64,000 nucleotides of DNA from Mobula hypostoma (taxonomy: Eukaryota). Positions 2,440 to 55,078 of the stretch are shown piece by piece; the first letter of the stretch is position 1; the number at the start of each line of letters is the position of its first letter. The position numbers were made by a program, and so were the translations under genes. The DNA lies in NCBI RefSeq assembly GCF_963921235.1, contig NC_086108.1:89034001-89098000 (forward strand). Reading direction: 5' to 3'. The notes under the pieces are model-generated. The model saw nothing but the letters and a program-made list of their open reading frames with translations. It was not told where the DNA came from and did no database searches.

Positions 2440-3364
2440 CAAACACAAAATAACCTGCAGATGCTGGGGTCAAAGCAACAATCACAACACGCTGGAGGAA
2501 CTCAGCAGGTCGAGCAGCATCCGTGGAAACGATCAGTCGACGTTTTGGGCCGGAACCCTTAAGAGGCCCTATAAAGAAGGTGGGGGAAGGGTGGGAGGGA
2601 GAAGGCTGGTAGGTTCCAGGTGAAAAACCAGTAAAGGAAAAGATAAAGGGGTGGGGGAGGGGAAGCAGGGAGGTGATAGGCAGGTAAGGTGAAGAAGGAA
2701 TAGGGGAAAACACAATGGGTAGTAGAAGGAGGCAGAACCATGAGGGAGGTGATAGGCAGCTGGGGTAGGGGGCAGACTGAAATAGGGATAGGGGAAGGGA
2801 GGGGAGGGAATTACTGGAAGTTGGAGAATTCTATGTTCATACCAAGGAGCTGGAGACTACCTAGACGGTATATTGAGGCGTTGCTCCTCCAACCTGAGTT
2901 TAGCCTCATCATGGCAGTAGAGGAGGCCATGTATGGACATATCTGAATGGGAATGGGAAGCAGAGTGGGTGGCTACCGGGAGATCCTGTCTGTTAAGGTG
3001 GACGGAGTGGAGGTGCTCAACGAAGTGGTCCCCCAATCTGTCTCGGGTTTCATCGATATAGAGGAGGCCGCACTGGGAGCACCGGATGCAATAGATGACC
3101 CCAAAAGACTCACAAGTGAAGTGTTGCCTCACCTGGAAGGACTGTTTGGGGCCTTGAATGGTGGCAAGAGAGGAGGTGTAGAGACAGGTGTAGCACTTAC
3201 GCTTACAGGGATAAGTGCCAGGTGGGAGATCCGTGAGGAGGTACGTGTGGAACAGGGAGTCGTGGAGGGACCGATCCCTGCGGAAAACGGAGAGGGGTGG
3301 AGAGGGAAAGATGTGCTTAGTAGTGGGGTCCTATCCTCCGCAACTTCCGCCACCTTCAACAGGA
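2440..3364 (-). mobile_element. Penelope-like element 3' part: GIY-YIG endonuclease fragment plus pLTR with degenerate hammerhead
   Basis: ORF 2857-3132(-) VIYCIRCSQCGLLYIDET.RL.DHF.EH is a GIY-YIG motif. It is followed by a pyrimidine-rich tract and aagggttccggcccaaaacgtcgactg at about 2534-2560. Confidence 0.85.
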
Positions 3365-4347
3365 ATAAGATGGAATATTCAAATGGAATAAGATACATGA
3401 ACTTGTAGCGCAGTTAGAGACTGGCAGGTATGATGCTGTGGGCATCAGTTAATTGTGTCTGAAAGATTATAGCTGAAAGTTTAACATCCAGTTTAACATT
3501 GTATCAAAAGGACAGGCAGGTAGGCAGAGGGTGTGGGTGGCTCTTTTGGTAAAAAATGAAATCAAAATCCTTAGAAAGAGGCGACATAGGATCAGAAAAT
3601 GTAGAATTAATGTAGAGTTAAAAAAGACAGTTACATGTGCTTCCTGGATTATGAAAAAGCTTTTGACCGAGTCAATCATGAACAGCTGGTCAATTGCCTG
3701 AACTCATTGGGGCTGGATGGGAAAGATGTTCGACTGATTGCGAGTCTGTACTGGCATTAGAAGGCAGTAATAAGAACTAGTGATGGGAATTCACCGGAAG
3801 CTGAGATCTAAAAAGGGGTTCGCCAGGGCTGCATTATCTCCCCTTTATTATTTAACATTTACTCAGAGGTAATCTTCAGGGTGTTGAACGATGAAGCTGG
3901 TGTCCAAACTGGTGGAGTGACGGTGAACAACTTGAGGTATGCAGACGATTCCGTGTTGTTAGCCGAGACTGAGGACGAGTTACTCAGAATAGTCGATAAG
4001 ATAAATGCTGAAGTTGAACGATTTGGAATGAAAATAAATGCTGCAAAGACGAAGATGATGGTAGTATCACGGAAAAAAGAAGTTCTCAAAATCAGTATCA
4101 AAATTAACGGTGTGGGCATAGAGCAAGTCAAGAAGTTTGAGTACTTGGGACAGATGGTCACAGAGGATGGGAAATGTGATACAGAAATTAGACGAAGAAT
4201 TGAGATTGCGATAGGGGACTTCCGGGTCATCAAGGGAATGGCGGCGTAAGGAAAAGGTCTCTCGACAAAAAAGAAGGTAAACTGCCCCAAAATCGAATTT
4301 AGACAAATACTTAATATTGCATAACTATATTAATAAAAGGGGCAAGG

Positions 4348-5334
4348 ATGATGTCTAAGAACAAGAATAAAAAGTCCGCTTCGAAGGCTGATAAACATAA
4401 AGAGACGCAGCAAGGCGACGGGCCTAGCTCCCCCACGGCAAGCCAGGACGGAGATAATGAGGGGGAATCGGTGACTCTGTCTTTGATTCTCGGAGAGATT
4501 CGCGAGTTCCGACAAGATAACAGCAAACAGCTGGAAGATATTAAAGGAGAAATAGTAAAAACTAACTCGCGGATAGATGAAGCCGAAGCGAGGATTGTTG
4601 GAATTGAAGAGAAGCTACAAAACGCCGAGGAAGTGATCGCAGAAATGCTGAAGCTACAAGACCAGTTCCAGTGGAAACTAATAGATCAAGAAGGCCGCTC
4701 GAGAAGGGAAAATGTGAGGATCTACGGAGTTCCCGAAGGAACCGAAGGTAAACCCGGATTGATGATTCCCTTCGTGGAGAAGCTGCTTAGAGAGAACCTT
4801 GATATACCGGCCGCAAAAGACCTACAGATAGAAAGGGCTCACCGCGCGTTGGCACCACAGCCTCCGGCAGGCGCCCAGCCCAGATCGATTCTGATCAGAT
4901 TTCTCAGTTACAGAACGAAGGAAGAGGTGCTTAAAAGAGCATGGCAATAGAAAGGTTTCATGTGGAACAACTGCAAAATCAGTTTAGACCACGACTACAC
5001 ACCGGGGATTCTTGCCAGACGGAAGGAATATGCGGAAACATGGAGAGTCCTGAAGGAAAACAACATCAGATTCCAGACCCTGTATCCAGCTCGGCTGAGA
5101 GTCTTTTACGACGAAGGGACAAAAACTTACGCTACGGTGGAGGAGGCAACGTTGGACCTGGCGGACTGGGGACTACCTATTAAAGTTATCACCCAACCGG
5201 AGTCGCTACTGGAGAGGATTCGGCAGAAGTCCTGGCAGTTAGTGGGGCGAGGACGCTCCACTCGAACCAGAGTGTCAAACTACAAGGAAAAGCTGCAAAT
5301 ATTCAGACGCGAATGTACAGAGAATACAGATTAA
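4348..5334 (+). pseudogene. L1 ORF1p with one in-frame stop (TAG 4948-4950)
   Basis: Coiled-coil, then DQEGRSRRENVRIYGVPEG, IERAHR, PRSILIRF and LYPARLRV. ORFs 4348-4950 and 4960-5334 share one frame. Confidence 0.95.
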
Positions 5335-5696: not shown

Positions 5697-8600
5697 ATGC
5701 AAACTGAATTGGTAAAAATAATTTCCTATAATGTTAATGGGGTTTTGAACCCAATTAAAAGAAATAAGATTATGTCTAAATTGAAAAAAGAGAGGGCACA
5801 AATAGCTTTCCTCCAGGAAACACATATGAGCCAATCTGAACATGGAAAATTAAAAAGAATGGGCTTTAAGCATGTATTTTATTCATCATATAAATTGAGT
5901 CACAAAAGAGGGGTAGCTACTTTAATATCAAGTACTCTTAATTATGAACATATTTCAGAGACTAGAGACAAAGGACGGTTTGTAAAAATCACAGGAAGAA
6001 TAGAAGGTACAGAAATAACATTGCTGAATGTTTATGCTCCTCCAGGTAGTGAATGGTCATTTTATAGACACATTTTTGACCTAATGGTCAGTTCTTGAGG
6101 GGTAGTAATTTGTGGAGGGGATTTTAATATTAGATTAAATCCTATATTAGATTCTTCAAGAATAGTTACTCAGAATAAACCTCTGACTCGGAAAGTGAAT
6201 TCATTGATGGAGGAGTTGGGAATTATAGATGTCTGGAGGGAATTACACCCTACTAGTAAAGATTATACATATTACTCTTTCCCTCATTCAGCCTATTCAA
6301 GGATAGACTATTTCTTTATCTTTAATACAGATAGACTCAGGATAAAAAACTGTAATATTGCAACAATTGATCTGTCGGATCATAGCCCAGTCTCTATGTC
6401 TCTAATCCTGGAAAGGAAAATGAGGAAAACACTATGAAGGCTAAACTCACATATACTCAATAACCCGAAAGTAATGGAGAGATTAAGGGGAGAAATCAAA
6501 GAATATCTAGACCTTAATGACACGGGAGAAACATCACCAGTGATTTTATGGGATACATTGAAAGCTGTACTGAGAGGGAAAATTATTTCCATTACTACTC
6601 ACATGAAAAAAATCAATGCACAAAAATTAGCAGACCTTCAAGGAAAATTAAAACAACTTCAAGTTGTAGATAGCAACAAAAGTAATTCAAATCGAAAACA
6701 GGAAATTAGGAAATTGCAAAGTGAAATTGATGATATTTATACGTTGGAAACTCAAAGAAATTTTCTTTACCTGAGACAAAAGAATTATGAAGTAGGAGGT
6801 AAATCAGCTAGATCATTAGCATATAAATTACGAAAACAACAAGCAGACAATACAATTCATAAAATAAAGAATCCAAAGACAAAGCTTGTGGAGAGTACAA
6901 TAGGGAAAATTCAAGAGAGTTTTGAAACATATTATCGAGAGCTGTACTCCCAACCCCGGGCCCCCAATGAGCCCTATATAGACAGTGTATTGAATTTTTT
7001 AGATCTACCTAAACTTACAGATTTACAAAATGAAAGTTTATTAGAACCAGTAACTGTCAAAGAACTGAACGTGGCCATCTCTAGGTTAAAGGCCGGAAAG
7101 TCCCCGGGTTCTGATGGGTTTACCTCAGAGTGGTACAAGTCCCTGAAGACACAGTTAGCCCCATTACTACTTAACACCTTTAATTGGATCTTGCAGAGAG
7201 GAGAAACTCCACCTTCCTGGAGAGAAGCGATTATTTCAGTTATTCCTAAAGAGGGTAAAGATAAACTAGAATGTGGCAATTATCGGCCAATTAGTGTTCT
7301 TAATTTAGATTACAAACTATTTACATCTATATTAGCGCGCAGATTGGAAAAGCTTTTACCTGGCCTAATCCATTTAGACCAGACTGGATTTATTCAACAA
7401 AGACAAACACAGGACAACATAAGGAGAACTCTGCACATATTAGAACAGGTTAATAAGAACGAGACAGAGACAATGGTAGTAGGATTGGACGCTGAGAAAG
7501 CTTTTGATTCGGTTAGTTGGGCATTCCTATACAGAGTGTTAGGAAGATTCGGCTTTCAAGAAAGGTTTATTAAAGTAATTCAGACTCTATATGACAGCCC
7601 TACAGCCCGAATTAAGATAAATGGGGACCTCTCTGACTCCTTCATTTTAGAGAGAGGCACTAGACAGGGATGCCCAATTTCTCCTCTCCTTTTTGCGCTA
7701 TATATTGAACCACTTGCCCAACTAATAAGACAGAGCGAAATCGTAAAAGGTATCAAGGTGGCAGGGATTGAACAGAAAGTGGCGTTATTCGCAGATGATG
7801 TTTTGGTCTATCTGAGTGAACCAGAAAAATCATTTATAGGATTGTTTACACTGTTGGATGACTTTGGGAAAATATCAGGTTATAAAATAAATGTAAAGAA
7901 AACGCAGGTTATGTCCCTAAATTATACACCATCCAAAAAATTGCAGGATACATACGATCTTAAGTGGGAAGCTAAATCATTAAAATATTTAGGAATAACC
8001 CTGCCGAAGGATCTTTCAACACTGTCACAGGTAAATTATGGGCCATTAATCTCGGAGATAAAAGCAGATATGCATAGATGGAATCTTATCCCCTTTTTAA
8101 GTTTAAATTCAAGGATAAATACTATAAAAATGAATATTCTTCCTCGGTTATTATATCTTTTCCGTACTTTACCAGTGGAGGTGGATGATAATCAATTCAG
8201 GGAATGGGACAAATGGATTTCCCGCTTCATTTGGCAAGGAAGGAAACCTAGAATTCGATATAACACCTTACAGTTAGGGAAGGAAGGAGGAGGTATGGTT
8301 CTTCCTTGCCTGAGAAATTATTTTTATGCCTCACAGATAACCCCTCTGTTATATTGGTGTAATAGGGAATATAAGGCTAGATGGAAGGAAATAGAATTTG
8401 GATTAGTTGACAGTTTTCCTCTTCAGGCCTCAATAGCTGACAAAGGATTGATGGCCCAGTTGGAAAAATTTAATAATGCTTGGATAAATCTTACATTAAA
8501 AGTATGGCAGAAGGTGGTTAATTCATGTGGAATTAATAACATGTTAAAACTCTTTAGATGGTGTGCATATGATACCGAATTCCTTCCCAACAGAGGAGAT

Positions 8601-9479
8601 AAAAGATTTGAGCTATGGATAAAGAAAGGTCTTACAACCTACCTCTCATTTATAGATAAAAGAGTATTACAAAGTTTCCAAATCCTGCAGGACAAACATG
8701 GCCTAGAACATAATGACTTTTTTAGGTACTTTCAAATACGAAACTATGTTAACCAGAGTTGTAGATATACAGACCCATCAACAGTAGAATTAGAATTTTT
8801 CAAGATTCTGAATTCGGCTTGCAGTTCAATACCTAGTAAATCAGTTTCTCACCTATATAATGCACTCTCCCATGCTAAAAATGTAAATACACTGTATATT
8901 AAAGAGAAGTGGGAGAAAGAAGCGGGGTTGGTACTTTCAGAGGAGGCTTGGGGGAAAATCTGCAGCTTTCAATGGTCCTCGACTAATTCTTTGACTTGGA
9001 GAGAACATTGTTGGAAAAACATTATAAGATACTTCAAGACCCCATATCAGGAAAAATATAAAGATACAAATGTGATGTGTTGGAGAAGGAGCGGCTCCAA
9101 GGAGGCAAATCATTTTCATATTTTCTGGGATTGCCCTAAATTAAGTCTATTTTGGGAAGGTATTCATAGAACATTAGTTAAGGTACTTAGGTCCCAGATA
9201 CCTCTGAACTTTGAGACGCTCTATTTGGGGCATGTATTGTTCCTTGAACAGAAGGAAGATATAAAGTTGCTGCAGGCCCTCGTAGCGGCAAGTAAGAAAT
9301 CAATCACTAGAAAATGGCTAAATCCAATACCACCTACATTAGAAGATTGGTACGAAATTATCTTGGAAATACTTAAAATGGAAAAGTTGACTTCCCTGAG
9401 AACTCAAAAAGAAACATTTTATCAAATCTGGAATAAATGGATTGAATATATAACCCCAATGCGAGCAGACTTTAGATGA
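5697..9479 (+). pseudogene. L1 ORF2p (APE endonuclease, RT, C-terminal Cys-rich domain) with two in-frame TGA stops
   Basis: SYNVNG, FLQETH, GGDFN, SRIDY, SDH, YRPISVLN, DAEKAFD, GTRQGCPISP, LFADD and KYLGI. ORFs starting at 5697, 6195 and 6474 share one frame; stops at 6096-6098 and 6435-6437. Confidence 0.97.
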
Positions 9480-13338: not shown

Positions 13339-14621
13339 AACTATTGATAGAGTGCTATTTCTTCTGTTTCCTGTGTATCTTGGAACTTGGGATTTTGGTG
13401 TGGCACCTTCAAAGTAAAGTGTTAAAATGTCCTTGTAACATTGAGAAGCTGACAATAGCTGGGAATCCCCCTTTCAATCAGACTGGTGCTCCAAAACAAA
13501 GCAACTATTGATGAATTCAGCTGTCCTTGAATGCTCACATCTGTTACTCCTTTAAAGCCATATGAATCAGCTTTGTAGAAATTGGTAGCATTGGTTACCA
13601 TGACTACAGCAGGAAAGGTTGTCCTGCTGTGAAGCTTCAGCATCTGACAGATCTCATTTAACACCTTCCTTTAGGAACAGTCTTCTTATACATTACTCAT
13701 TGGTCTGGTTGACGCAGGTATACTGCTACCAGAAACTCTTCTTTGGAAAGGGCTTCTTGCAAGGGGCTTTTCTGCTCCCCTCCTCTTCCTTCCACTTCTG
13801 ACGGATGGCTCTGCTCTCCTTTGCACTTACTGATTTTTGACATTAAGGTGAACCTATAACTACCTTCATGTTGGTTGGGAAATGATTGAGCTGAAGTTAG
13901 ATTGCACATTCATCCATAAGAGGACCTTCTCTCTTAAGGCATTTCATGACCAACATTGTCTAACAATAATGCACAAGCAACCAATTTTCTACTGATCTTC
14001 TCCAACAAATATAGAAGTCATGAATGCACCTTTTAACTTAGGTCAAACAGGTACTGGGACTTTTCTTTCAGCTGCTGAATATTGATGTTTCTGTGAGGCA
14101 CAGAGCATCTTACTGGTTGAATTGTCCCATTCCTACTTCGAATCACAGATATCAAACTAGCTTTGTATATGGATCAGCTTAGTGCCAGTAAGTGAATTCT
14201 AGTTAATAGGGCCATTGGTTAATCGGGGCAGTCGCTTATTTGGGACAACTCTTAAAGAACAAAAACTTATCAAAAAAATACCAGGGATTCCCCTTGTTTA
14301 TTTGGGATACCATGCGATTAGTTGGGACAGAAGACTGTTGCTGAGCAGTGCTATCTAGCGCCAGTCGCGTGCATTTGTGTGACCTTTAAACGCTACCCTG
14401 TACTTAGAGCAAATGGCATTTGTTACATGTGTTTTTGTTCAAAATAGAGTGATTTTTGTCACTGATAGTGGTGAGAAATAAGCAGTAAGACAAGTTGGAA
14501 TTGTATTGCTCAGCGTGGTTCAAATATTCAGACTCTAAGATGCCAGAAATAGCCAGGAAATGAAATGATTTCGCTACTTTAACAGGTTAGAAACTACAAA
14601 AAAAATTGAAGGTATCAGCAA

Positions 14622-14716
14622 CACACACAAAATGCTGGAAGAACTCAGCAGGCCGGGCAGCATCTACGGACAAAAGTACAGTCAATGTTTCGGGCCAAAA
14701 CCCTTTGGCAGGACTC
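14622..14716 (-). mobile_element. 95-bp Penelope-derived hammerhead repeat insertion
   Basis: TSD aaggtatcagcaa (14609-14621) and aaggtattagcaa (14717-14729). Minus strand reads gagtc-CTGCCAA-agggttttggccc-GAAA-cattgactg. Confidence 0.8.
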
Positions 14717-14839
14717 AAGGTATTAGCAATCATCTGGAATGTTACAATGAAAATGAAGGTTTGAAGGATGCCATCATCAAAAGCATTGTATGAAGGCAAT
14801 TCTTTATCTACACTAGATCTCTGCACTCATTTGGTTCAT

Positions 14840-15769: not shown

Positions 15770-16930
15770 AACTTTATTTATAGAGCAATTTTCATATAGA
15801 TGATGTACATATGAACATAAGAACATAAGAAATAGGAGCCATCTGGCCCATTGAGTCTGCTCCACCATTCAATAAGATCATGGCTGATCTGGCCATGGAC
15901 TCACCTCCACCCACCTGCCTTTTCCCTATAGCCCTTAATTCCCCTACTACGCAAAAATCTATCCAACCTTGTCTTAAATATATTTCCTGAGGTAGCCTCC
16001 ACTACTTCATTGGGCAGAGAATTCCACCGTAGTTCAAAGAGATTTATAATAAAATAACAAACATGAAAATAAAATACAAAAAAATGTTAGTTAAGAAGCC
16101 GAGTTAAAGAAATAGTTGTGAGCTGGTGTTTAAAAGTCACAATTGAGTCTGCATCCCTTATATTTTTAGATATTGAATTCAATAGTTTAGGAGCATGGTT
16201 CAAAAAAGCTGATCTGCCAGTTACCTATTGAGAGCGATTGTTTAAATTTAAGAAACCAGTGGAACAGGATCTGCAAGCTCAAGCAGGATGATAAAATAAA
16301 AATATTCTGTGGTATCAGACCATTAAAAGCTTTAAAACAAGTAAGGGAGTTTTAAAATCAATTCCAAAAAATCCAGGAAGCCAATGCAGAGAAGCTAATA
16401 TAGGAGTGATATATCCCCTCCTCCTGGTTTTGGTGAAAAGTCAAGCAGCAGCGTTCTGAATTAGTTGAAGTTTGTCAATAGGTTGCAATGGAAGGCCAGT
16501 AAAAAGTGCTTTGCAGTACTTGAACACGAGGAATTCTGCAGATGCTGGAAACTCAAGCAACACACATCAAAGTTGCTGGTGAACGCAGCAGGCCAGGCAG
16601 CATCTCTAGGAAGAGGTACAGTCGACGTTTCTGCACGTCGATTGTACCTCTTCCTAGAGATGCTGCCTGGCCTGCTGCATTCACCAGCAACTTTGATGTG
16701 TGTTGCAGTACTTGAGTCTATTTGATATAAAGGCATGATTTAGTTTTTTCGGCATCATTACATGATAGAAATGAAAGGACTTTTGCAATAAGTCTAGAAA
16801 TACTGATCTGGTCGCTTTCTTTATATGGGATTTAAAATTCAAATCTGAATCAAGGATAACACCAAGGCTAGTTACTTCTGATTTTACAAGGGGAGTGAAG
16901 TTCCCAAGTTTATTGAGAAGTTTATCTCAT
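15770..16930 (-). mobile_element. L2 LINE 3' portion, interrupted by a CR1 tail (15810-16027) and a hammerhead repeat
   Basis: Minus strand encodes LGVILDSDLNFKSHI (about 16825-16870) and ITPILASLHWLP (about 16375-16410), hallmark L2 C-terminal motifs. Confidence 0.75.
16524..16702. repeat. fold-back Penelope pLTR insertion: two 72-bp inverted arms meeting at the hammerhead
   Basis: Arms 16557-16628 and 16635-16706 with 2 mismatches. TSD ttgcagtacttga at 16511-16523 and 16703-16715. Confidence 0.9.
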
Positions 16931-17074: not shown

Positions 17075-19705
17075 TGTTGGCAGAGCAGCTTATTTGTGCC
17101 ATAAGATGGAAGGATGTTGAATCCTTGTGGATTGAGTGAAGAAACTGCAAGGGTAACAGTACTCTGATGGCAGTTATATAAAGGGCTTCCAACTGTAGCT
17201 ATGATGAAGACCACAGATTACAATAAAGAGAGTGAGTTTGTTGAATACCTACACGGTAGCTTTTTAGAGCATTTTGTCTTTGAGCCTACTAGGGGGATCA
17301 GCTATACTGGAGTTGGTGTTATATAATGAACTGGAGGTGATCAGGAGCTTAAGGTAAAAGTACCCTAGGAGCAAGTGATCAATATGATTGAGTTCAACTT
17401 GAAATTTGATAGGGAGAAAGTAAAGTCTGTCATAGCAGTATTTCAATGGAATAAAGGAAATTACTATGGTATGAGAGAGGAGTTGGCCAAAGTAAATTGG
17501 AAGGAGATGCTAGCAGGGATGACAGCAAGGCAGCAATGGCATGAGTTTCTGGGAAGAATGAGGAAGGTGCAGGATAGATGGATTCCAAATATGAAGAAAT
17601 ACTCAATTGGCAAAAAAATCTAACAAGGGAAGTCAAAGTAATGTAAAAGCAAAAGAGTACAACAAAGCAAAAATTAGTGGGAAGATGGAGGATTGGGAAG
17701 CTTTTAAAAACCTACAGAGAGCAACTAAAAGCATCATTAGGAGGGAAAGGATGAAATATAAAAAAAAAGAGAGCAAATAATATCGAAGTGGGTAGTAAAA
17801 GCTTTTTCAAGTATGTAAAAAATAAAAAAGAGATGAGAGTGAATATAAGACTGCTAGAAAATGAGGCCGGAGAAATAATACCGGGGGCCAAGGAGATGGT
17901 AAATGAACTAACTGAGTATTTTGCATGGATCTTCACTGTGGAAAGCACTAACTGTGTGTCAGTTAGTCCTGCCGAAAGGTCTCGGCCTGAAACCTCGACT
18001 GTACCTCTTCCTAGAGATGCTGCCTGGCCTGCTGCGTTCACCAGCAACTTTGATGTGTGTTGTCAGATATTAAAGGGTGTGAGGGAAGATAAGTGAGTGT
18101 AGTTAGTATTGCAAGGGAGAAGGTGCACAAAAATCTGAAAGTTCTAAGGTTGCATAAGTCACCTGGACCAGATGAACTGCACTCTAGGGTTCTGAAAGAG
18201 GTAGCGTTAGAGATTATGGAGGTATTAGCAATGATTTTTCAAAAATCATTGGACCCTGGTATGGTGCCAGAGGACTGGAAAATTGCAAATGTCACTTCAC
18301 TCTTTAAGAAAGGAGGAAGGCAGCAGAAAGCAAATATGGACCAGTTAGTCTGAACTCAGTGGTTGGGATGGTGGTGGGATCAATTATTAAGGATGGGGTT
18401 ATAGGGTACTTGGTGATGCAGGACAAGATAGGACAAACTTAGTGTTGTTTCCTTATGGGAAAATCTTGCCTGACAAACCTGTTGGAATTCTTTGAAGAGC
18501 TTACAAGTAGGATAGATAAAGGAAATGTAGTGGATGTTATATATTTGGACTTTCGGAGGCCTTCGATAAGGTGCCACACATGAGGTTGTTTAGCAAGTTA
18601 AGAGCCCATGGTATTACAGGAATGTTTTGGCATGGTTAGAGCAGTGGCTGATTGGTAGGAGGCAACGAGTGGGAATAAAAGGATCCTTTTCTGGTTGGCT
18701 GCCAGTGACTAGTTGTGTTCCGCAGGGGTCAGTGTTGGGACCGCTTCTGTTTATGCTGTATATAAATGATTTAGATGTTGGAATAGATGGTTTTGTTACC
18801 AAGTTTGCAGATGATATAAAGGTTGGTGGAGGGGCAGGTAGTGTTGAGGAAACAGGAATGTTGCAGAAGGACTTAGAGAGATTAGGAGTATGGGCAAGAA
18901 AGTGACAAATGTTGGAAAATGCATGGTCATGCACTTTGGTAGTAGAAATAAAGATGCAGACTATTTTCTAAACAGGAAGAAAATACTAAAATCTGAGATG
19001 CAAAAGGACTTGGGAGTCCTTGTGCAGAACACCCTAAAGGTTAATTTTCAGGTAGAGTCAGTGCCAAGGAAGGCAAATGCAATGTTAGAATTCATTTCAA
19101 GTGGTCTGGAATACAGGAGCAAGGCTGAGATACTGAGGCTTTATAAGGCACTGGTCAGGCCTCACCTTGAGTATTGTGAACAGTTTTGAGATCTTCATCT
19201 AAGAAAAGATGTGCTGGCATGGGGAAGGTTCAGAGGTTCACAAGGATGATTCCGGGAATGAAAATTTATCATACAAGGAATGTCTGATAACTCTGGATCT
19301 GTTCTCACTGGAACTTAGAAGGATGAGGAGGGATCACATTGAAATCTCTTGAATGCTGAACTGCCTAGACAGAGTAGATGTCAAAAGGATGCTTCCCTTG
19401 GTGGGGGAGTCTAGGGCACAGACTCAGGATGGGGGGGTGGGGTGTCCATTTAAAACAGAGATTTCTTTAGCCAGAGTGTGGTGAATTGGTAGAATTTGTT
19501 ACCACAGGCAGCAGTGGAGGCCAGGTTGTTGAGTGTATTTAAGGCAGAAATTGATAGGTTCTTGATTGGATACGGCATCAAAGGTTACAAGGAGTAGGCC
19601 AAGGAGTGAGGCTGAGAAGGGGAAGAAAGGATCAGCTATGATTGAATGGCAGAGCAGACTCAATGGGCCAAATGGCCTAATTCTGCTTCTATGTCTTACA
19701 GTCTA
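17075..19705 (+). mobile_element. CR1 LINE (degenerate EN/RT and 3' end)
   Basis: KSPGPDELHSRVLKE, VPQGSVLGPLLFMLYINDL, KFADD and LVRPHLEYCEQF, followed by a CR1 tail. Confidence 0.9.
17963..18060 (+). mobile_element. about 100-bp hammerhead repeat inserted in the CR1
   Basis: agtc-CTGCCGA-aaggtctcggcct-GAAA-cctc-gactg, flanked by tgtcag at 17957-17962 and 18061-18066. Confidence 0.8.
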
Positions 19706-26850: not shown

Positions 26851-29272
26851 TTAAATATGACATCCTATCTTTTGTAAATAAGGGCGCCAAATATTCAAGC
26901 ATGTTACATAATTATCTCTTAAATTATAAGTAATTTTTTCAAGTGGAATAGAACTAGCCATTTCATTATTCCAACGATCCATACTTAAATACGAATCAGA
27001 TTTCCAAGTAACTACTATAGTCTTCTTAGCTACTGCCAATGCAATTTTTATAAATTCTTTCTGATATTTATTCAATTTAAGTTTCGGTTTTATCCCTTCA
27101 ATATCACCTAATAGAAATAATACAGGGTTATGTGGAAGTTGAATTCCAGTAATTTCTTCCAATAAGATTCTTAAATTTATCCAAAAAGGTTGAATTTTAA
27201 AACAAGACCAAGTAGAATGTAAAAAAGTACCAATTTCTTGATTACACCGAAAACATTTATCAGATAGATTTGAGTTTAATCTATTTATTTTTTGTGGTGT
27301 AATATATAATTGGTGTAAAAAATTATATTGTACTAATCTAAGTCGAACATTTATTGTATTTGTCATACTGTCCAGACAAAGTCTTGACCAATTTATTTAA
27401 TCAATATTAATATTCAGATCTGTTTCCCATTTTTGCTTTGACTTATGGGTTCCTTGTTTAATTGTCTGTTCTTGAATCAAATTATACATACAAGAAACAA
27501 ATTTTTTAATTTTTCCTTTTTGAATTAAAATTTCAATTTCATTAGCTTTTGGCAAAAACATTGTTTGACCCAGCTTACCTATCAAGTAAGCCCTTAACTG
27601 AAAATAACAAAAGAAAGTATTATTAGATATTTTATATTTATCCTTTAATTGTTCAAATGACATCAATATACCTTGCTCAAAACAATCTCCTATAAATTTA
27701 ATCCCTTTTTGGTACCAATTATATAAAAGTTGATTGTCCATTGTAAAAGGAATAAGTCTGTTCTGAAACAAAGGTCTCCTTGCTAATAGATATTTCTGCG
27801 TTTCCTTATCAACATTTATCTTATTCCATAGATCAATCAAGTGTGTTAATATAGGAGATTCTTTCTTTTCCCGTATCCATTTAGATTCCCATTTATATAT
27901 AAAATCTTCAGGTTTATTTTCTCCTATCTTGTCTAGTTCTATTTTAATCCATGCTGGTTTTTGATCATCGAAAAAAGATGCAATAAATCTAAGTTGATTT
28001 GCTTTATAGTAATTTTTAAAGTTTGGAAGTTGTAACCCTCCTAACCTAAATTTACATGTCAATTTTTCCAATGATATTCTTGACATTTTACCTTTCCAAA
28101 GAAATTTTCTCACAGATTTATTTAACTCTTGAAAAAATTTCTGTGGCAATTGTATTGGTAATGTTTGAAACAAATACAGTAATCTTGGAAATATATTCAT
28201 TTTTACAACATTGATTCTACCTACTAATGTTATTGGTAGTATCATCCATTTGTCAAGATCTTCTTGAATTTTTTTCAATAGTGGTAAATAATTAAATTTA
28301 TATAAATTTTTTACATCACTATCAAGTCTTATACCTAAATACTTATTCTTTCTTAATTTTAGACGTATAACTTATTATCTGTCCCCTAAGATATGCTTTC
28401 ATCGCATCCCATAATATAAATTTATCCTCCACTGAATGAAAATTTGTATCCAAAAAAAATTGAATCTGGTTTTTCATAAAATCACAAAAATCTTGACGTT
28501 TTAATAATGTTGAATTAAATCTCCATCTATAAGCCACTTCTTCCTTATCAGCCATTATTATTGTCATTAATAAAGGAGAATGATCTGATAATATTCTTGC
28601 TTTATATTCCATATTTTTCACTGTGTTGAATATGTATTGATAATAGAAAAAATCTATCCTTGAATAAGTTTTATATCTATGGGAATAGAACGAATAGTCT
28701 CTTTCTTTAGGATTGATTCTTCTCCATATATCAATCAAATTTAAATCTTTCATCAATGATAAAGTTAGATTTACTACCTTCGATTTTATAACAGCCTTGG
28801 TTGATCTATCTAAGACTGGGTCTAAGCAAAAATTAAAGTCTCCTCCAATTAATATTTTTTCAAGTGCATCCGCCAAATTCAAAAAAGTTTCTTGTATGAA
28901 TTTTGCATCATTTTCATTTGGTGCATAAATATTCATAAAAGTCCATAGTTCGGAAAAAAGTTGACAATGTATAATCACATATCTCCCCGCAGAATCAGTT
29001 ATTACATTTTGTATTCTAATTGGTAACGTTTTATTGATCAAAATTGCTACTCCCCTCGCTTTTGAATTAAATGAGGCCGCAACAACATTACCCACCCAAT
29101 CTCTCTTTAGTTTCTGATGTTCTGTTTCTGTTAGGTGTGTTTCCTGTAAAAAAGCTAAATCTATCTTCATTTTTTTAATATATGTTAAGATTCTTTTTCT
29201 TTTCACTGGTCCATTAAGCCCATTAACATTAAAACTCAAAAAATTCAATAAATTAGTCATTATTCTTAACAA
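26851..29272 (-). pseudogene. L1-B ORF2 remnant: APE endonuclease joined directly to post-RT region and CCHC
   Basis: SFNVNG, FLQETH, GGDFN, SRIDF and SDH, then at about 28345 KYLGIRLD, KMNIFPRLLY and CFRCNQEIGTFLHSTWSC. No YRPI, QG or ADD motifs. Confidence 0.92.
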
Positions 29273-29724
29273 AGTTACTCCAATCTAAAACATTACTTAT
29301 CTTCTCAACTCTCATAGTTCCTTGGGGAATCTCTTTAAACTTCACCATGATGCTATGTGTCCCCCCCCCCACCAACCTTCCAGGCAAAAAGAGAAAAAAA
29401 AAGATAGGAAAAAAAAGAAAAAACAAAATACCCCCCCACTAATGTTGTGAATGAAAAGATATACAACACTACCCCCCTCCATTTTACGGGTCGCGGCAAA
29501 AGCCACGGTTGCACACATGATTAATGTGGCAATCGATCAGTGCTTCTTCCAGCTCCCCCGCAACAAAAAGTTATATATATATAGACAAAATTAGTATTAT
29601 TATTCCCAACTAATTTCCTCCAGTGTTAACCTTTCTTACCCCCCTCATATAATTAATACTATATTTATACATTCATCCAGCTTCAAAAATCCAACAAATC
29701 CATTCTTAAGCCCAATCTTCATCT

Positions 29725-30829
29725 TCAATCTTTCTCGCTCTCCTGAGTTTGTTCTTGTATCTGGTGAATATTCAGAGAATCTTGCACAAACTGCTCCGCT
29801 TTCTGGTAGTCATCAAAAAATCTTTTTTCTCCACCAGACAAAAAAAATCTTCAAAGTTGCAGGATAACGCAGTATAAATTGATAACCATGCTCCCATAGG
29901 GTTTTTTCCACTGGATTAAACATCTTCCTTTTCTTCAAAAGTTCGTAACTTATATCAGGGTAGAAAAAAACTCTTTTCCCTTTAATTATCAATGGCCCTT
30001 TTCTATCTTTGGCAGCTCGAACAGCTGCCTGAAGAATCCTTTCCTTGTCTTGAAATCTTAAGAATTTTATTAAAATCGATCGTGGATATTGGTCATCTTT
30101 TGGTTTTGGTCTTAAAGCTCTATGTGCCCGCTCAATGTCAATTGGTTGAACCTCCTCTCCCATTTGCAAAACCTTCGGGATCCATCTTTGAAAAAATTCT
30201 ATTGGCTTATCTCCTTCCATACCTTCTGTAAGACCAACAATTTTAATATTATTACGTCTACTGAAATTTTCCAACATGTCCACTTTCTCCAAGAGTCGAT
30301 TTCTTTCCGAGTTCCAGACAAGCAAATCATTTTCTGTTTTTTCCACTCTATCATTCATAAGCCCCATTTCTCTTTCCATCTTCTGAAGCTTCTTTTCCAT
30401 TTTGTCCTGTCTTTCCATAACTTTATTATAGCATCTCTTTGTGTCTCTAAGCTCCTCTCTTACTTTCCTTAATTCAGTTGTTGATTTCAATACAGCCTCT
30501 CTTATGTCTCTATCATATCCTTTACTTCCACTCGCTTCCAATTCTTCCTCCTCTTCTTCATCTGTGTTCTCTGCAGAATCCAGTTCTGGCTCTGAGTCAC
30601 TTTCAATTGCAGTGGGTGTCGGTTCTTGTAGTTTGCGCTGTGCCGATTTGCGCATGCGCAATTCCGTTGTCTTCTTCGGAGCAACCGTTGCCACCGCCAT
30701 TGCTCCCTGTTCTACCGAAGGAGATCCAACCTGAGTCCAAGGCTCCATCGTTGCAGTAGGCCCTTTTTTCTTCCCATCTCACGGCTGCTTCGTAACAGCA
30801 GACTTCTTTTGTTGCGGTTTAGGAGGCAT
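29725..30829 (-). pseudogene. L1-B ORF1p (ATG 30829, one in-frame TGA, frameshift near 29830)
   Basis: MPPKPQQKK..., LENFSRRNNIKIVGL, IERAHR, PRSILIKF, FYPD and RYPATLKI. Confidence 0.9.
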
Positions 30830-32775
30830 ATCGTAAAGTAATCTTACAAAGTTTATAAATAGTTTTCAAAAAATATTTACCAACTTTGTTTTATTTAAAC
30901 GGTACTTTACTGATTTGTTGCGGGAGAGCTGAATTTACACGTCTCAATCCCACGTCATCACGTGACGCCCCCCTATTAGCATGAATTAATCAGTGTGATG
31001 GCCAGGTGGAAGAAGCTGTCCTGGATTTTATGCTGTGGTACTGTTTCCCAAATGGTAGCAGCTGGAACAGTTTGTGGCTGGGGTGACTCTGGTCCCCAGT
31101 TGTCCTTTCTATACCCCTACCTTTGTAAATGTCCTGAATAGTGGGTAGTTCACATCTACAGACGTGTTGGGCTGTCCGCACCACTCTCCACAGAGCTAGT
31201 CAGAGCTCAAATTTATACAATAATATTTCCATGACATTACTTCAAGGTCAAGTTGTCTCCCTGCACTTATCACTTCCTGACATCTTCACTATTTGATTTT
31301 TTTTTCGGACATTCTCTTGGAAGGCCCTCACTTTCAACAAAAAGCAACTCCTTTTTGTCCATTGGCATGTATTCAGTATCAGATTTATTTACTTGTCACA
31401 TGTACATCAATACATGCACTGAAACAGATCATCTGTGTCAAAAATCAAGAATCTGCTGGGGCAGGTGTGCCCACACAGTCCAGAACCAACATAGCACGTC
31501 TAGAATGCTTGGCTGAGCCACACAGATCACAACAAGCATCAAAAGCAACAGCAAAACAAGCTCCAGTCCCCCCTCCCACCTAGCCACCCACGCACATACT
31601 GCACACAGATCTGTAACCCCAGGACAGGCCATCTTTGGCTGCCAGGCTCCAGAAGACTCATGGATTTGCGGTCATTGAGCCTCTGTTTTCCCCAGCAGAC
31701 CTGCAGAGATTCACAGAGTCAGGGCTCCAACAACTGGAGCTTGACTTCGGCGGATCCGATCGACCTTCGGACTTTGACTGGACTTCCTGCTGTCCTCACC
31801 GGCTGTCCTGCTCCTCTGGCCCCTGTGTGAATCATCCACTGCAACTGCATCAATTTTAGTGAAAGAATCACAGAAATCTTAGATAAAAACAAAACAGGTG
31901 AGAGTCTAACTACAGAAATTTACTGTCCAAGATCTTTGAGTCTTTCCATGGTCTCATCTACATCTACCTCAATGATAGTTTATATAGCTCTAGGCACTTT
32001 TGTGCTTCTATAACACTTTTCTGTAATGGCTTCCACAACTGATTAGCCCCATCATCATGGCCTCTTCACTTGCAAAGGGTCCTGACTTAAAACATTGACT
32101 GTCCTTTCTCTTCTGCAGATGATTGCTGACCCACTGAGTTCCTCCAGCAGCTCATTATGTTGCTCCAGAAATGATCTCCTGCTTCTATTTCTTCCCTAAG
32201 GGGGTCTGTGCTTTTGCTGGAGCAGGTGAGGGGAGGGGAGGGCTAATACTGTTGCTGCTGCTTGTGTACGAGGGAAGGGGGCTTTGGGGTTCTGATGTTT
32301 CGGTCATTCATTATTTGGGTTGTTTTCTGTTTTTTGGAGACCTCTGAAGAGTAAGAATTTCAGGCTGTATACTGTATACATTCTCTGAACCGTTGAACCA
32401 TTCCTACCTTTCAAACTTTGAATGGCAGCTCCATCTAGGAAACAATAACAACAACAAAACAGAAGCCCTCATATCAGGGACTGTTTGATGGCCTTAACCT
32501 TGTTAGCTATTCTTAGCACATAATAGCATATTTTACCTGCTGCTTTAGAGGAAATTGAGCACAATATGCATCTTGGAAGAAGGGTACTGTGAACAGTGTA
32601 AAGTCACGATTAGTCAATGCTTGCAATAATAGGTACTTAAGGCTTGGCAATTTTTCCTTCTACTGCTAATTTCTTTGAGTTCCTCATTTATCCTGAACCT
32701 GCAGTCTTTTGCTATTTCCAGAAGTGTTCATCCGTTTTTGTTTCTTTTCCACTAAGATGCATTCCTGTGCAAAAG

Positions 32776-32914
32776 CGCAAACAACAGGAATTCTGCAGAT
32801 GTTGGAAATTCAAGCAACACACACCAAAGTTGCTGGTGAACGCAGCAGGCCAGGCAGCATCTCTAGGCAGAGGTACAGTCGACGTCTTAGGCCGGGACCC
32901 TTCGTCCCGTGTGT
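32776..32914 (-). mobile_element. hammerhead repeat insertion into a tiny Tc1 TIR element
   Basis: 14-bp TSD ttcctgtgcaaaag at 32762-32775 and 32915-32928. Minus strand reads gacgaagggtcccggcctaagacgtcgactg. Confidence 0.85.
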
Positions 32915-33437
32915 TTCCTGTGCAAAAGTGTTAGCTGGGGTGCCTAAGACTTTTGCACAGTACTGTATCTACTAAATTAACAACAACGTAAGACTCACAG
33001 ATATTGCTGTTTCAAGGGAAGATAAAGAGAGGATGGAGATGGATGCCTTTCCACCATCTGCTTCTTTTTCTTCTTACAGAAACATCTGCATGATGCTAAA
33101 CTAGGACACATCATCAGTGATGCTACCTGGGGTCGTCAAGTGTTTCGGGTCTTTCAACATCATACACCCTCACCCAGGCGACCCGACCGGGGTTGATCAG
33201 ACCCCGGCCTGTGTCCTAGCAGCAACCCATGGATCTGCCCTCTTTATCCAGAGCCATCTTGATGCTTTCTCTGCTGCATCTATGGTGGTAGAAATGGCTT
33301 TCCTTCTTATCTCTCCCGTGATTCCAAGTGCAGTGTACACTTTGCAGAGTGACTGGCCTGTAAAGCCACGTCACCCGACCTCCACGGGCCAACACTTTGC
33401 TCTCCAGCCTCTTCTTTGGCAGTTGTTCTTCAGATCT

Positions 33438-34076
33438 TCATACCTGGCTCTTTTCCGTGTCGTAGGCCTCCTCCATGCGTTCTTCCCACAGTACGGTAAG
33501 CTCAAGCATAAGAACATGCTTCAATGAGTTGGACCACAACACAATGTCGGGCCACAATGTAGCCTCTGTGATATGGGGAGGAAACTGCAGCTGTTTTCCC
33601 AGGTCTGCTTTTAGCTTCCAGTCCTGCGCGGTGAAGAGCAACCCGGTTGCTTTCCAGTGTTCTGTTGGTCTTTCCCCCTCTTTGACAAAGCAGATAGTAT
33701 CCTTGACCGGACTTGTTTTCCGGCAGATGTTAAAGGTGCTGCAGATTGTCTCAGCAATTGTCTGAAGGACCTGGTCATGCCACCACCGATAAAGGCCATC
33801 AGCAAGAGCTCTGGGGCAGCAGCTCAGAATATGCTCCAGCTCACAGAGGATCTTCTCACAGAGGGGGCAAGCTGGTGGTTCTGCAAGGCCCCAGTAGTAC
33901 AGGTTGCATGGACTAGGGAGGACGTCATAAACAGCCTGGATAAGGAATTTGATGCGGTGTGAATCCACCTTCCAGAGATCGTTCCACGTGACCTTTCGCT
34001 CGATCACCTGCTCCCATTTGGTCCAGGCTCCTTGCTGTTTCATTGCCACTGCTCTGCTGGTCCTCTCCTCCTCCAC
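33438..34076 (-). pseudogene. Hero-like C-terminal CCHC and restriction-like endonuclease
   Basis: CPLCEKILCELEHILSCC, YRWWHDQVL, WPDIVLWS and MLELTVLWE. Confidence 0.85.
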
Positions 34077-34084
34077 AGCTGCCC

Positions 34085-50759: not shown

Positions 50760-51538
50760 AGCTGTCTAAAGAGTGGACAGTCGCAAGGCTGTGGGACTGG
50801 ACGGCATCCCAGGGCGGGTACTCAGGATGTGCGTGGCACAACTGGCAGGTTTGTTTACAGACATTTCTAATCTCCCTCTCTCCCAGTGTACAGTGCCCTC
50901 CTGCTTCAAAACATCCATCATTGTTCCCCTACATAAAAAGACCAAGGTAACATGTCTGAATGACTGGCGTCCTGTCGCACTCACCTCAATAATAAGCAAA
51001 TGCTTTGAGAGGCTGGTCAAGGACTACATCTGCAGCTTGCTACCACCCACGCTGTCCCCTACAATTCACCTACCAACACAACCGACCGATAGACAACGCA
51101 ATAGCCACTGCTCTACACACCGTCCTTACGCATCTGGAAAAGAAGGATGCTTATGTGAGAATGCTGTTCTTGGACTACAGTTCAGCATTCAACAGCGTAA
51201 TTCCCTCCAGACTCGAGAAGAAGCTCAGAGTCCACGACCTTCACCCTGCCTTGTGCAGCTGGATCCTAGATGTTCTGTCAGATCGCCGGCAGGTGGTAAG
51301 AGTGGGTTCCCTCACCTCTGTCCCACTGACGATCAACACAGCAGCCCCTCAGGGCTGTGTACTAAGCCTCCTCCTTTACTCTCTGTATACCCATGACAGT
51401 GTCGCCACCCACAGTTCCAATCTGCTAATTAAATTAGCTGACAATACTACACTGATTGGCCTAGTCTCAAATAATAATGAGGCAGCCCACAGTGGTGTCA
51501 AGAAAACAAACTCTCCCTCAACATCACAAAAACAAAGG
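50760..51538 (+). mobile_element. Rex1/Babar RT fragment
   Basis: KAVGLDGIPGRVLR, CLNDWRPVALTS, RMLFLDYSSAFN, APQGCVLS and IKLADNTT. Confidence 0.9.
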
Positions 51539-51598
51539 ACCACACAACAAAGTTGCTGGTGAACGCAGCAGGCCAGGCGGCATCTCTAGGAAGAGGTA

Positions 51599-51635
51599 CA
51601 GTCGACGTTTCAGGCCGAGACCTTTTGTCAGGACT
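51599..51635 (-). ncRNA. hammerhead ribozyme motif (G8>A variant)
   Basis: agtc-CTGACAA-aaggtctcggcct-GAAA-c-GTC-gactg. Confidence 0.6.
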
Positions 51636-52377
51636 AACTGAAAGAAGGGATAGGAAGAGATTTGAAAGTGGGAGGGGGAGGGGGAGATCCAAAATGATAG
51701 GAGAAGACAGGAGGGGGACGGATAGAGCTAAGAGATGGAAAGTTGATTGGCAAAAGAGATACAAGGCTGGAGAAGGGAGAGGATCATGGGACGGAAGGCC
51801 TAGGGAGAAAGAAAAGGGGAGGGGAGCACCAGAGGAAGATGGAGAGCAGGCAAGGAGTAATTGTGAAAAGGACAGAGAGAGAAAAAAAAGATAAAAAAGG
51901 AAAAAATTAAAAAATAGACAAACAAACAAACAAACAAATAAATAAATAAGGGATGGGGTAAGAATGGGAAGAGGGGCATTAATGGAAGTTTGAGAAGTCA
52001 ATGTTCATGCCATCAGGTTGGAGTCTACCCAGATGGAATATAAGGTGTTGCTCCTCCAACCTGAGTGTGGCTTCATCTTTACAGGAGAGGAGGCCATGGA
52101 TAGACATATCAGAATGGGAATGGGATGTGGAATTAAAATGTGTGGCCACTGGGAGATCCTGCTTTCTCTGCTTTCTCCATCTTCCTCTGGACTCCCCTCC
52201 CCATTTCTTTCTCCCCAGGCCTCCCGTCCCATGATCCTCTCCCTCCTCCAGCCTTGTATCCCTTTTGCCAATCACCTGTCCAGCTCTTAGCTCCATCCCT
52301 CCCCCTCCTGTCTTCTCCTATCATTTTGGATCTCCCCCTCCCCCTCCTACTTTCAAATCTCTTACTATCTCTTCTTT

Positions 52378-52420
52378 CAGTTAGTCCTGATGAAGGGTCT
52401 CGGCCCGAAACGTCAACTGT
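52378..52420 (+). ncRNA. minimal type-I hammerhead ribozyme with intact catalytic core
   Basis: CTGATGA at 52387-52393, helix II gggt-ctcg-gccc, GAAA at 52407-52410, palindromic ACGT helix III and GTC triplet at 52412-52414. Confidence 0.75.
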
Positions 52421-52879
52421 GCTTCTTCCTGTGGATGCTGTCTGGCCTGCTGTGTTCCACCAGCATTTTGTGTGTGTTGCTTGAATTTCCAGCACTTGCA
52501 GATTTCCTCGTGTTTGCTGAATAGCGGGAAGTTCACGTCTTGGAATGGGGCCTGGAGTCAACGACGCCTGGGGGAAATCGATGGAGGACTAACGGATGGG
52601 AAACCGTAAGCGCCAACATGCACATTAGACTGTTTCATTAAAATGGGCCCTTTTCTTTTTTGTTTTTTTCTTTACTAACCCTCTAGTCAAATTAAGAATT
52701 ATAAAGCTAAATCGTTTAATTGCGTATAGTGTACTGTTTGTTATTTCGTGGTATTGATTTGTAACAGGGGAACACATCACGCAGCATCCAAACAAACAAG
52801 AGGTTTTGCACCTTAGCTTTCACACGTTTGGCGGGGCCAGATGCTGTCTTAGAATAACGCCGCCAGCCGAACCTGAGGG

Positions 52880-54960
52880 TTGCACCTTCGTCAACTTTCC
52901 TGGTAACTTCCTTGAAAACCTCTATTAAATTGGTTAGACACAACTTACCACACAAAGCTATGTTGACTGCCTCTACTTATTCCCTGTCTATCCAAACTAT
53001 TTCCAGTCCCTTAGAATACTTCCCAATAGCTTTCACACTACTGATGTTAGGCTCACCAACCTATAATTTCCTGGCTTATTTTTACACCCTTTCTTAAACA
53101 AGGGTTTAAGAATGGCCTATGGTCAGGCCACACTTAGATCCCCTCCAGTTCACCTACCAGCCCCGACTAGGAGTTGAGGATGCCATCGTCTGCCTGCTGA
53201 GCCGTGTCTACTCCCACCTGGGCAAGCCAGCGAGCACTGTGAGGGTCATGTTTTTTGACTTCTCCAGTGCATTCAACACCATCCGCCCTGCTCTGCTGGG
53301 GGAGAAGCTGACGGCGATGCAGGTCGATGCTTTCCTGGTGTCATGGATTCTTGATTACCTGACTGGCAGACCACAGTACGTGTGCTTGCAACACTGTGTG
53401 TCCGACAGAATGATCAGCAGCACTGGGGTTCCACAGGGACTGTCTTGTCTCCCTTTCTCTTCACCATTTACACCTCGGACTTCAACTACTGCACAGAGTC
53501 TTGTCATCTTCAGAAGTTTTCTGATGACTCTGCCATAGTTGGATGCATCAGCAAGGGAGATGAGGCTGAGTACAGGGCTACGGTAGGAAACTTTGTCACA
53601 TGGTGTGAGCAGAATTATCTGCAGCTTAATGTGAAAAAGACTAAGGAGCTGGTGGTAGACCTGAGGAGGGCTAAGGTACCGGTGACCCCTGTTTCCAACC
53701 GGGGGTCAGTGTGGACATGGCGGAATATTACAAGTACCTAGGGATACGAATTGACAATAAACTGGACTGGTCAAAGAACACTGAGGCTGTCTACAAGAAG
53801 GGTCAGAGCCGTCTCTATTTCCTGAGGAGACTGAGGTCCTTTAACATCTGCCGGACGATGCTGAGGATGTTCTACGAGTCTGTGGTGGCCAGTGCTATCA
53901 TGTTTGCTGTTGTGTGCTGGGGAAGCAGACACCAACAGAATCAACAAACTCATTCGTAAGGCCAGTGATGTTGTGGGGATGGAACTGGACTCTCTGACAG
54001 TGGTGTTTGAAAAGAGGATGCTGTCCAAGTTGCATGCCATCTTGGACAATGTCTCCCATCCACTACATAATGGACTGGTGAGCACAGGAGTACATTCAGC
54101 CAGAGACTCATTCCACCGAGATGCAACACAGAGCGTCATAGGAAGTCATTCCTGCCTGTGGCTATCAAACTTTACAACTCCTCCCTTGGAGGGTCAGACA
54201 CCCTGAGCCAATAGGCCAGTCCTGGACTTATTTCCTGGCATAATTTACATATTACTATTTAATTATTTATGTTTTTATCACTATTTAATTATTTATGGTG
54301 CAACTGTAACAAAAACCAATTTCCCTCGGGATCAATAAAGTATGACTATGACTATGACTAAACAACAGAACAATTTTATCTATCCACCAATCCTCTGATA
54401 TCTCACCTGTTGCTAAAGACATTTTAGGTGTCTATGCTAGAACCCCTGCAATTTCAGCACTAGCCTCCTATAGGGTCTGATGGAGCATCATGTCAGACCT
54501 GGGGGATTTATTCACCGTAATTTGCTGAAACAGCAAACATTTCCTTATCTGTAATCTGTCTAGGGCACATGACCTCACTGCCATGTTGCCTCACATATAT
54601 AGACTCTGTGTCTGTCTCATGAGTAAATACAGATGCAAGCATTTCATTTAAGATCTCACCCATCTCACTTGGGTCCATGCATAGATGACTACTGTGATTT
54701 TCCAGAGGACCAGTTTTGTCCCTTGCAATCCTTTTGATCTGAATATATCTGTAGAAGCTCTTGCGACTTTCCTTCACCTTGACTGTTCCTTTTTTCTATT
54801 CACAAAAGAAATCTCATGCCTTCTTTTAGCTATCCTGATTTCCTTTTTAAGTGTTCTCTGCATTTCTTATACTCCTCAAGTACCTCATTTGTTCCTTCCT
54901 GCCTATACCACCTTCTTCTTAACTAGGACCTCAATATGTCTTGAAAAGCGAAGTTCCCTG
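52880..54960 (-). mobile_element. CR1 remnant split by a Rex1 insertion
   Basis: CLTNLIEVFKEVT and KSFYRYI..IARDKTGPL. Confidence 0.75.
53102..54358 (+). mobile_element. young 5'-truncated Rex1/Babar element
   Basis: LDPLQFTY, MFFDFSSAFNTI, QKFSDDSAIVG and YKYLG. AATAAA plus (TATGAC)n tail. TSD taaacaa at 53095-53101 and 54359-54365. Confidence 0.92.
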
Positions 54961-54961
54961 A

Positions 54962-55078
54962 ACATGAGAAAATCTGCAGATGCAGGAAATCCGAGCAACA
55001 CATACAAAATGCTGGAGGAACTCAGCAGGCCAGGCAGTATCTATGGAAAAAAGTACAGTCAACATTTTGGGCCAAAAT
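54962..55078 (-). repeat. hammerhead repeat truncated inside helix II
   Basis: Minus strand reads ttttggcccaaaatgttgactgtac...ctgctgagttcctccagc. Confidence 0.75.

Follow-up and report, generated by a model that had tools for sequence, protein, structure and literature searches.

Short inserts with a hammerhead-like motif recur in the window (the whole stretch of 64,000 nucleotides analysed here, G000:C50:89034001-89098000). They are real, non-random products of a kind already known, and the signature of the mechanism in them is unusually clear. Judged by their sequence, they are terminal modules of a Penelope-like element with a reverse transcriptase (RT) and a GIY-YIG endonuclease and not a separate retrozyme family, since their variants and both of their 3' ends are common with copies of up to 3.6 kb and no tandem arrays occur. 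The most informative feature is a two-armed anatomy that was absent from the initial annotation of this DNA. It is fairly probable that the inserts are 5'-truncated modules made by dual priming of an uncut RNA, both cDNAs likely running off a 5' end upstream of the hammerhead.

Positions in the module are counted from the predicted hammerhead cut between GUC and GACUG, which is set to 0, with negative values upstream. Two 3' ends occur, one at +66 (site 1, tailless) and one about 102 nt downstream of the cut (site 2), the latter with a tail of 35-45 nt. The following copies and target site duplications (TSDs) were found in the window.

2452..3330, minus strand: longer 5'-truncated family C copy with endonuclease frame end, 3' UTR, module and tail
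14609..14621: left TSD copy, 13 bp, flanking 14622-14716
14622..14716, minus strand: single-arm terminal module of the older family B; begins near -33, at helix I, and ends without a tail at site 1
14717..14729: right TSD copy, 1 mismatch, flanking 14622-14716
16511..16523 (left) and 16703-16715 (right): TSD, 13 bp, of the head-to-head insert 16524-16702
16524..16631, minus strand: tailed arm (site 2), family A2, of this head-to-head insert; 5' stop at -8
16635..16705, plus strand: partner of the preceding arm, tailless (site 1); its 5' stop, at -5, falls at the ACGT palindrome
17957-17962 and 18061-18066: 6-bp repeat at the 17963 copy, overlapping the element's own ends
17959..18062, plus strand: single-arm A2 module, -38 to site 1, within a CR1 copy
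32762..32775 (left) and 32915-32928 (right): TSD, 14 bp, of the insert 32776-32914
32776..32906, minus strand: tailed A2 arm (site 2); 5' stop at -26, inside CTGACGA
32907..32914, plus strand: 8-nt filler that looks like the remnant of a site-1 arm, with an ambiguous match over 7 nt
51535..52517: longer head-to-head pair of 3' ends, the minus arm tailless and the plus arm tailed
54956..55078, minus strand: family-B module with tail; its 5' end lies within helix II, and it is flanked by no clear TSD

The insert at 14622-14716 contains the 5' strand of helix I, a decayed core (CTGCCAA), helix II and the cut site; its start at helix I and its 13-bp repeats with one mismatch were recovered as annotated. 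For 16524-16702 the annotated 13-bp TSD was confirmed, but the description as ribozyme plus downstream sequence has to be given up, as the insert consists of two arms head to head and the CUGANGA box is absent from it. The final 3 nt of its plus arm are in common with the TSD. The copy reported at 17963-18060 is a true insertion, 104 nt long, into CR1, as shown by alignment with four other CR1 copies. Its 6-bp repeat is partly made up of the element's own letters on both sides and cannot serve as a 13-15-bp TSD; the TSD search score was 0. The 14-bp TSD reported for 32776-32914 is present, with the element stopping at 32906 and 8 extra nt following. Likewise, the copy at 55078 stops in helix II as described, with a flanking repeat of merely 5 nt (by eye). 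In each of the 14622, 16524, 17963, 32776 and 55078 copies the core is decayed or clipped. The copy at 2452..3330 links the module to a coding element, as it carries both the endonuclease frame end and the module.

Several further observations were made in the window. A core variant CTGCCGA/CTGCTGA (A6 to C) at 14705-14711 and 17970-17976 recurs in short and long copies, so the ribozyme may have been dead in part of the source elements. At 36643-36799 and 41583-41795 there are two head-to-head module pairs from other subfamilies, both older and decayed. Approximately 3 kb around the 55078 copy (54956-58000) recur inverted with 99% identity about 52 kb downstream on the same contig (G000:C50), just beyond the window, which is either a recent duplication or an assembly artefact. 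CR1 and L1-like repeats are abundant in the window, which belongs to a 3.48-Gb genome, possibly that of a cartilaginous fish. An L1/Tx1-like RT with a 1013-aa open frame, possibly young, occupies 6438-9479 (plus strand) with an ORF1-like frame ahead of it at 4315-4950, and a second L1-like element with its frame in pieces lies at 26851-30778 (minus strand). RT frames of 723 and 222 aa at 33438-36256 (minus strand) resemble an R2/NeSL-type element with a restriction-like endonuclease.

With the segment 52174-52520 as query, matching copies extend upstream for variable lengths. The window's 156-aa frame led to a locus (L166) with a 973-aa frame that ends in the module. This frame gave matches to RVT_1 (E 7.9e-6) and GIY-YIG (E 0.0033), both below the Pfam curated cut-offs, and contains CKRKCYTC, a CX3CX2C linker read in family C only, before the endonuclease. 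A CX2-5CxxC linker at this place is given as a mark of Neptune/Nematis in a passage of PMC8557442. An optional 30-40-bp tail, inverted 5'-truncated copies and TSDs were all found. On these features the element can be classed as an EN+ Penelope-like element (PLE) with a Neptune-type cysteine linker. The 16524, 17963 and 32776 copies belong to A2, a young family and the youngest one here, of which a full-length copy measures about 3.58 kb with an 11-bp TSD; the A2 body is 77% identical over 2.3 kb to the 973-aa frame with RT and GIY-YIG. The module ends long copies of this element, and the proposal that a Penelope RT/GIY-YIG made the inserts is supported. Partial tandems with module and tail placed as a pseudo-LTR (pLTR) ahead of the ORF were observed at L175, L216, L218, L220, L232 and L243. 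In the genome the module 29-mer has 39,331 exact matches, compared to 686 for the 26-mer of the module-ORF junction; two variants of the 29-mer occur 15,256 and 5,476 times. A sample of arbitrary places (1.264 Mb) contained 336 modules of all families, 69 of them A2, which extrapolates to about 190,000 young modules genome-wide.

A minimal hammerhead descriptor (CUGANGA, an extra nucleotide, helix II, GAAA, palindromic 15.2-16.2, NUH, helix I) matched 70 of the 336 modules. Positions of helices I and II are paired in 58-69 of these 70 with compensatory change being scarce, and the triplet is GUC in 45. Helix II has 4-5 bp and in A2 mostly a G-U at its base (45/70). No hammerhead match was obtained with Rfam at gathering score in the window. 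The motif is a minimal hammerhead outside the Rfam models, with cleavage predicted. The module folds no better than shuffles (z -0.9 to 1.6), which gives no ground for postulating a stable retrozyme-like structure. At L218:520-580 and in other long copies, a branch-point-like TACTAAC/TACTCAC, a pyrimidine tract and one or two AG stand directly before helix I, and this look-alike of a 3' splice site is kept in families A2, B and C.

For the statistics 163 A2 motif matches were collected, 69 from the arbitrary sample and 94 from loci near the 72 places listed first for the module 29-mer; after exclusion of one 5' module belonging to a full-length copy, 162 arms remained. The motif used covers +29..+65, so that shorter arms are invisible. 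TSD scores of at least 8 were reached by 115 of the 161 testable arms versus 2 of 400 mismatched (shuffled) flank pairs. These duplications are 13-15 bp long in 80 of the 115 cases and have a GC content of 32%. In total, 82 distinct TSD-flanked inserts were obtained, 33 of them with at most 180 bp and 45 two-armed; 24 of 64 single-arm inserts were without an adjacent TSD.

The 3' ends of the 162 arms are bimodal, with 74 being tailless and 88 tailed. In the head-to-head inserts with both ends intact, site 1 is combined with site 2 in 45 of 45, a count from which 13 further inverted cases with a second arm short of an end were excluded. Genome-wide, a tailed arm facing a second arm had tails on both in 63 of 4,929 matches, compared to about 53% (72/137) expected for free combination, in a test that comprises short pairs and the two-tail class only and counts many matches on both strands. 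Fillers of 10-16 nt in four apparently single inserts match the opposite end type in all four, while fillers below this length are ambiguous and a few weak calls point the opposite way. The lengths of the two arms are coupled: among the 45 pairs, 32 are both short, 9 both long and 4 mixed (Fisher p 2e-6), and 3 of the 9 long pairs have near-equal arms (p 0.05). The tailless arm is often the longer one (e.g. -2649 / -804 or -448 / +42), by which a fold-back of the tailed cDNA is excluded. This anatomy points to a common template on which each of the two target ends primes a cDNA of its own, followed by joining of the cDNA ends. Two other candidates were rejected: spliced templates, as no junction linking -30/-34 with element sequence further upstream was found, and an extra G derived from a cap, as the G's before -32 turned out to be part of the TSD.

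The 5' ends were mapped on family-matched references; a jump in coverage seen at helix I with one reference for all copies was set aside, as the families diverge upstream. In the 162 A2 arms the stops per 100 nt at risk amount to 0.28 at +29..+5, 0.30 at +4..-4 and 0.62 at -5..-24, rise to 2.93 at -25..-39 (47 events), and fall to 1.15 at -40..-61 and 0.12-0.18 in all bins upstream to -3500. The enrichment over upstream is about 20- to 21-fold; a p value of 7e-39 on arms is overstated because arms of one insert are not independent. Peak rates of 2.14 in 68 arbitrary arms and 2.98 in 64 single-arm inserts were obtained. The mode at -31..-33 coincides with the 5' strand of helix I, and the peak is not sharp but a smear of 15-35 nt. 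Approximately 45% of the arms reaching -22 stop before -65. Genome-wide probes at -22, -43 and -65 gave 70,993, 39,953 and 39,441 matches, with probe retention of 44, 40 and 44 of 52. The loss from -22 to -65 is 44% over 43 nt compared to a baseline prediction of 6%, most of it between -22 and -43; for the shoulder at -43..-65 the corrected genome-wide loss is about 10% versus 21% in the sample. In family B, 11 of 62 modules stop at -30..-32 and 23 of 62 at -21..-40, to which reference divergence may contribute. The break-point tables of A1 and C (19 and 14 modules) were left out, as they overlap with B via motif cross-matching.

In the histogram of 5' breakpoints that the initial annotation had set as a check, an even spread was not observed, and the pile-up at the hammerhead that it described is real. 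Its suggestion of a stop at the cleaved ribozyme is not supported: stops within 4 nt of the cut occur in none of the 64 single-arm inserts and in 4 of the 162 arms, the peak lies 31-33 nt upstream, and most short inserts retain sequence upstream of the predicted cut. With no single-arm insert starting at the cut, cleavage does not make these ends and is not the explanation of the enrichment. Stops prefer a purine after a pyrimidine (18 of 47; 20% expected, p 0.003). Transcription starts favour the same context. In 20 copies that continue into the ORF start, the range -25..-37 contains no stop at all. Their stops fall at -38..-48 in 4 cases, at -7/-8 in 3 and downstream of the cut in 6; another 4 end at -93..-178, and the last 3 extend beyond -390. 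Full-length templates thus do not have one common start at -32.

These results can be arranged in the following scheme. The protein of the element would cut both target strands with a stagger of 13-15 nt, corresponding to the observed TSDs. The two 3' ends would mark two RT start sites, by analogy with the anole element (PMC11167929); the observed pairing suggests that one DNA end would use site 1 and the other site 2. The junctions and stubs point towards a subsequent head-to-head joining of the two cDNA ends, frequently where short homologies exist, as in helix I or the ACGT palindrome, and an arm of 0-16 nt would make an insert look single-armed. The stop peaking at -31..-33 would be the template 5' end, either a transcription start or a processed end at -26..-60. 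Any RNA with a module near its 5' end, including the 5' pLTR of a monomeric transcript, would yield a short product, and ribozyme cleavage would not be required. Both the coupling of arm lengths and the purine-after-pyrimidine bias would be explained by a common template end. The coupled arm lengths, together with one solo copy that was reused as template, lean to short templates. The lack of stops at -25..-37 in the ORF-junction copies counts against run-off at helix I, and so does the start site known from D. virilis, as transcription begins further upstream there, 46 nt upstream of a 75-nt intron and not at helix I, according to passages of PMC2377424 and PMC4209133. As the cause of the stop, the template 5' end is a serious candidate that falls just short of probable, versus a barrier to the RT as a somewhat weaker one. 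If two-ended priming is obligate and transcription starts at the hammerhead front, an RNA of 100-140 nt with the ribozyme fold and both start sites might be mobilised without cleavage and account for about 10^5 inserts, which we put forward tentatively.

Alternatively, dual-primed insertion could proceed on a long RNA with the RT halted by some barrier that it meets at the hammerhead's 5' edge, a reading that we consider possible but rather doubtful. Candidates for the barrier are a weak rU:dA hybrid, a protein-bound fold, or factors on the pyrimidine tract and AG, which resemble a 3' splice site. A peak at -30..-32 in family B as well, despite its different upstream sequence, would fit this reading, with the reservation that divergence from the reference may account for some of these break points. 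In most families helix I follows a pyrimidine tract that ends in YAG, and in D. virilis the end of the 75-nt intron maps to helix I (a passage of PMC4209133); a spliced junction at -30/-34, however, was not found. Of the ORF-junction copies reaching -24, 4 of 11 stop by -48, which is near the general rate and in line with a barrier. The coupling of the arms speaks against it, as independent stalls predict about 17 mixed pairs of short and long arms in 45 and 4 were observed; a barrier acting jointly on both RTs is possible. Furthermore, an RT moving 3' to 5' would open helix I at +3 first, so that a stop would be expected at about +4 or -9 and not at -32.

It is improbable that the inserts form an independent non-autonomous family, SINE- or retrozyme-like, in which solo modules are self-transcribed, copied in trans and found lineages. 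One composite insert (G000:C1:2960798-2961421, 14-bp TSD) argues for this, as it joins a short module to 296 nt of flank of a solo copy. This flank matches that of the solo copy at G000:C1:170427 with 98.6% identity. At least once, therefore, a solo copy acted as template; trans transposition of sequence between pLTRs in a rotifer is also described in a passage of PMC3846280. At L250 (G000:C1:2960765-2961421) and L187 the order within the 14-bp TSD is short module, 296-nt flank, 42 nt of other sequence, tailed module and tailless arm, and the solo copy from which the flank derives sits in an LTR-retrotransposon RT region. The composite looks like a 5' transduction with template switch. Such trans use of a solo short copy occurs but looks rare: one transduction was found among 47 arms searched for a distant TSD. 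The 5' end of the short inserts is not fixed, and no tandem arrays occur in the window; a same-strand core within 1 kb was met in 3 of 70 intact-core modules. Diagnostic variants are common to short and long arms. Shared variants confined to short arms number 3 compared to a permutation mean of 1.8 (254 of 1000 permutations as high), in a test on 66 short and 60 long arms whose power is low with 90 nt. Divergence from the majority is 3.7% in short and 4.5% in long arms. One variant class was seen in 6 long and no short arms, and a second class occurs in 7 of the 60 long arms and 20 of the 81 short ones, which indicates that the source elements differ somewhat. With no arrays, no private variants and short copies continuous with long ones, the retrozyme-like family of the initial annotation is not supported.

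A hammerhead-cut template, with the cDNA running off the cleaved 5' end of an RNA from GACUG or copied from a circle, would fit the proper minimal hammerhead with its paired helices and GUC triplets and the few arms of two-armed inserts ending at 0..+7, but it is extremely improbable and largely refuted by the break-point histogram, and single minimal hammerheads did not cleave in vitro (PMC4209133), while cleavage-dead RNA inserts equally well and none of the reads in anole began at the cut (PMC11167929).

As an element the one described here is ordinary, since truncated Penelope ends with a minimal hammerhead have already been described. Its value is mechanistic and concerns how telomerase-related retroelements finish insertion, why inverted ends carry a tail on one side, and what role the hammerhead plays. 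Three testable constraints emerge: each DNA end uses a single start site, the lengths of the two arms are coupled, and stops cluster 25-40 nt upstream of the cut and not at the cut itself. Each could be tested directly in the published in vitro system.

Metazoan non-LTR retrozymes (passages of PMC7229834; bioRxiv 10.64898/2026.07.22.740005) resemble the inserts in having a type I hammerhead and pLTR-related sequence, TSDs of more than 4 bp and a probable mobilisation by PLEs. They are, however, head-to-tail repeats of 150-450 nt with at least two, typically canonical, hammerheads and circular RNAs. In contrast, the inserts found here are solo or head-to-head, never carry more than one minimal motif on a strand and align colinearly with the autonomous element. 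Head-to-tail hammerhead repeats were not found in the window, and among the 336 modules 48 head-to-head versus 18 same-strand pairs were counted. Closer are the minimal hammerheads of metazoan PLE pLTRs, which in passages of PMC4209133 likewise have no helix III, a palindromic ACGU and an extra A before helix II, and are mostly single dispersed motifs ascribed to truncated PLEs with some opposite-strand pairs. The present motif differs from those described there by its helix II of 4-5 bp and the G-U at its base in most of A2.

Known EN+ PLE copies, as far as described in passages of PMC8557442 and PMC3846280, possess a pLTR, an inverted truncated copy and a 30-40-bp tail. Shared with these insertions are the frame of RT and C-terminal GIY-YIG, heavy 5' truncation, TSDs, head-to-head copies with a tail on one end only, and partial tandems forming a 5' pLTR (here L218, L220, L232 and L243). 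Beyond these passages, in which no such numbers were found, our analysis adds a counted tail rule, the coupled arm lengths and the 20-fold hotspot. A literature search yielded neither a counted hammerhead break-point hotspot nor a pairing rule for sites 1 and 2, although supplements such as Fig. S2 of PMC11167929 may bear on the point. The closest experimental counterpart is PAc (Poseidon of Anolis), whose protein cuts and extends both strands in vitro from two internal start sites with ribozyme cleavage being dispensable (PMC11167929). The spacing of the two internal sites, which equals the tail, the AC-rich start region downstream of the hammerhead and the AT-rich targets are similar in both elements. 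In that study the start site was alike for both strands, and the sites were not paired with the two ends of one insert. The element described here differs from PAc in its cysteine linker, which is of Neptune type, and in the start of its ORF, which lies downstream of the tail and not in helix II.
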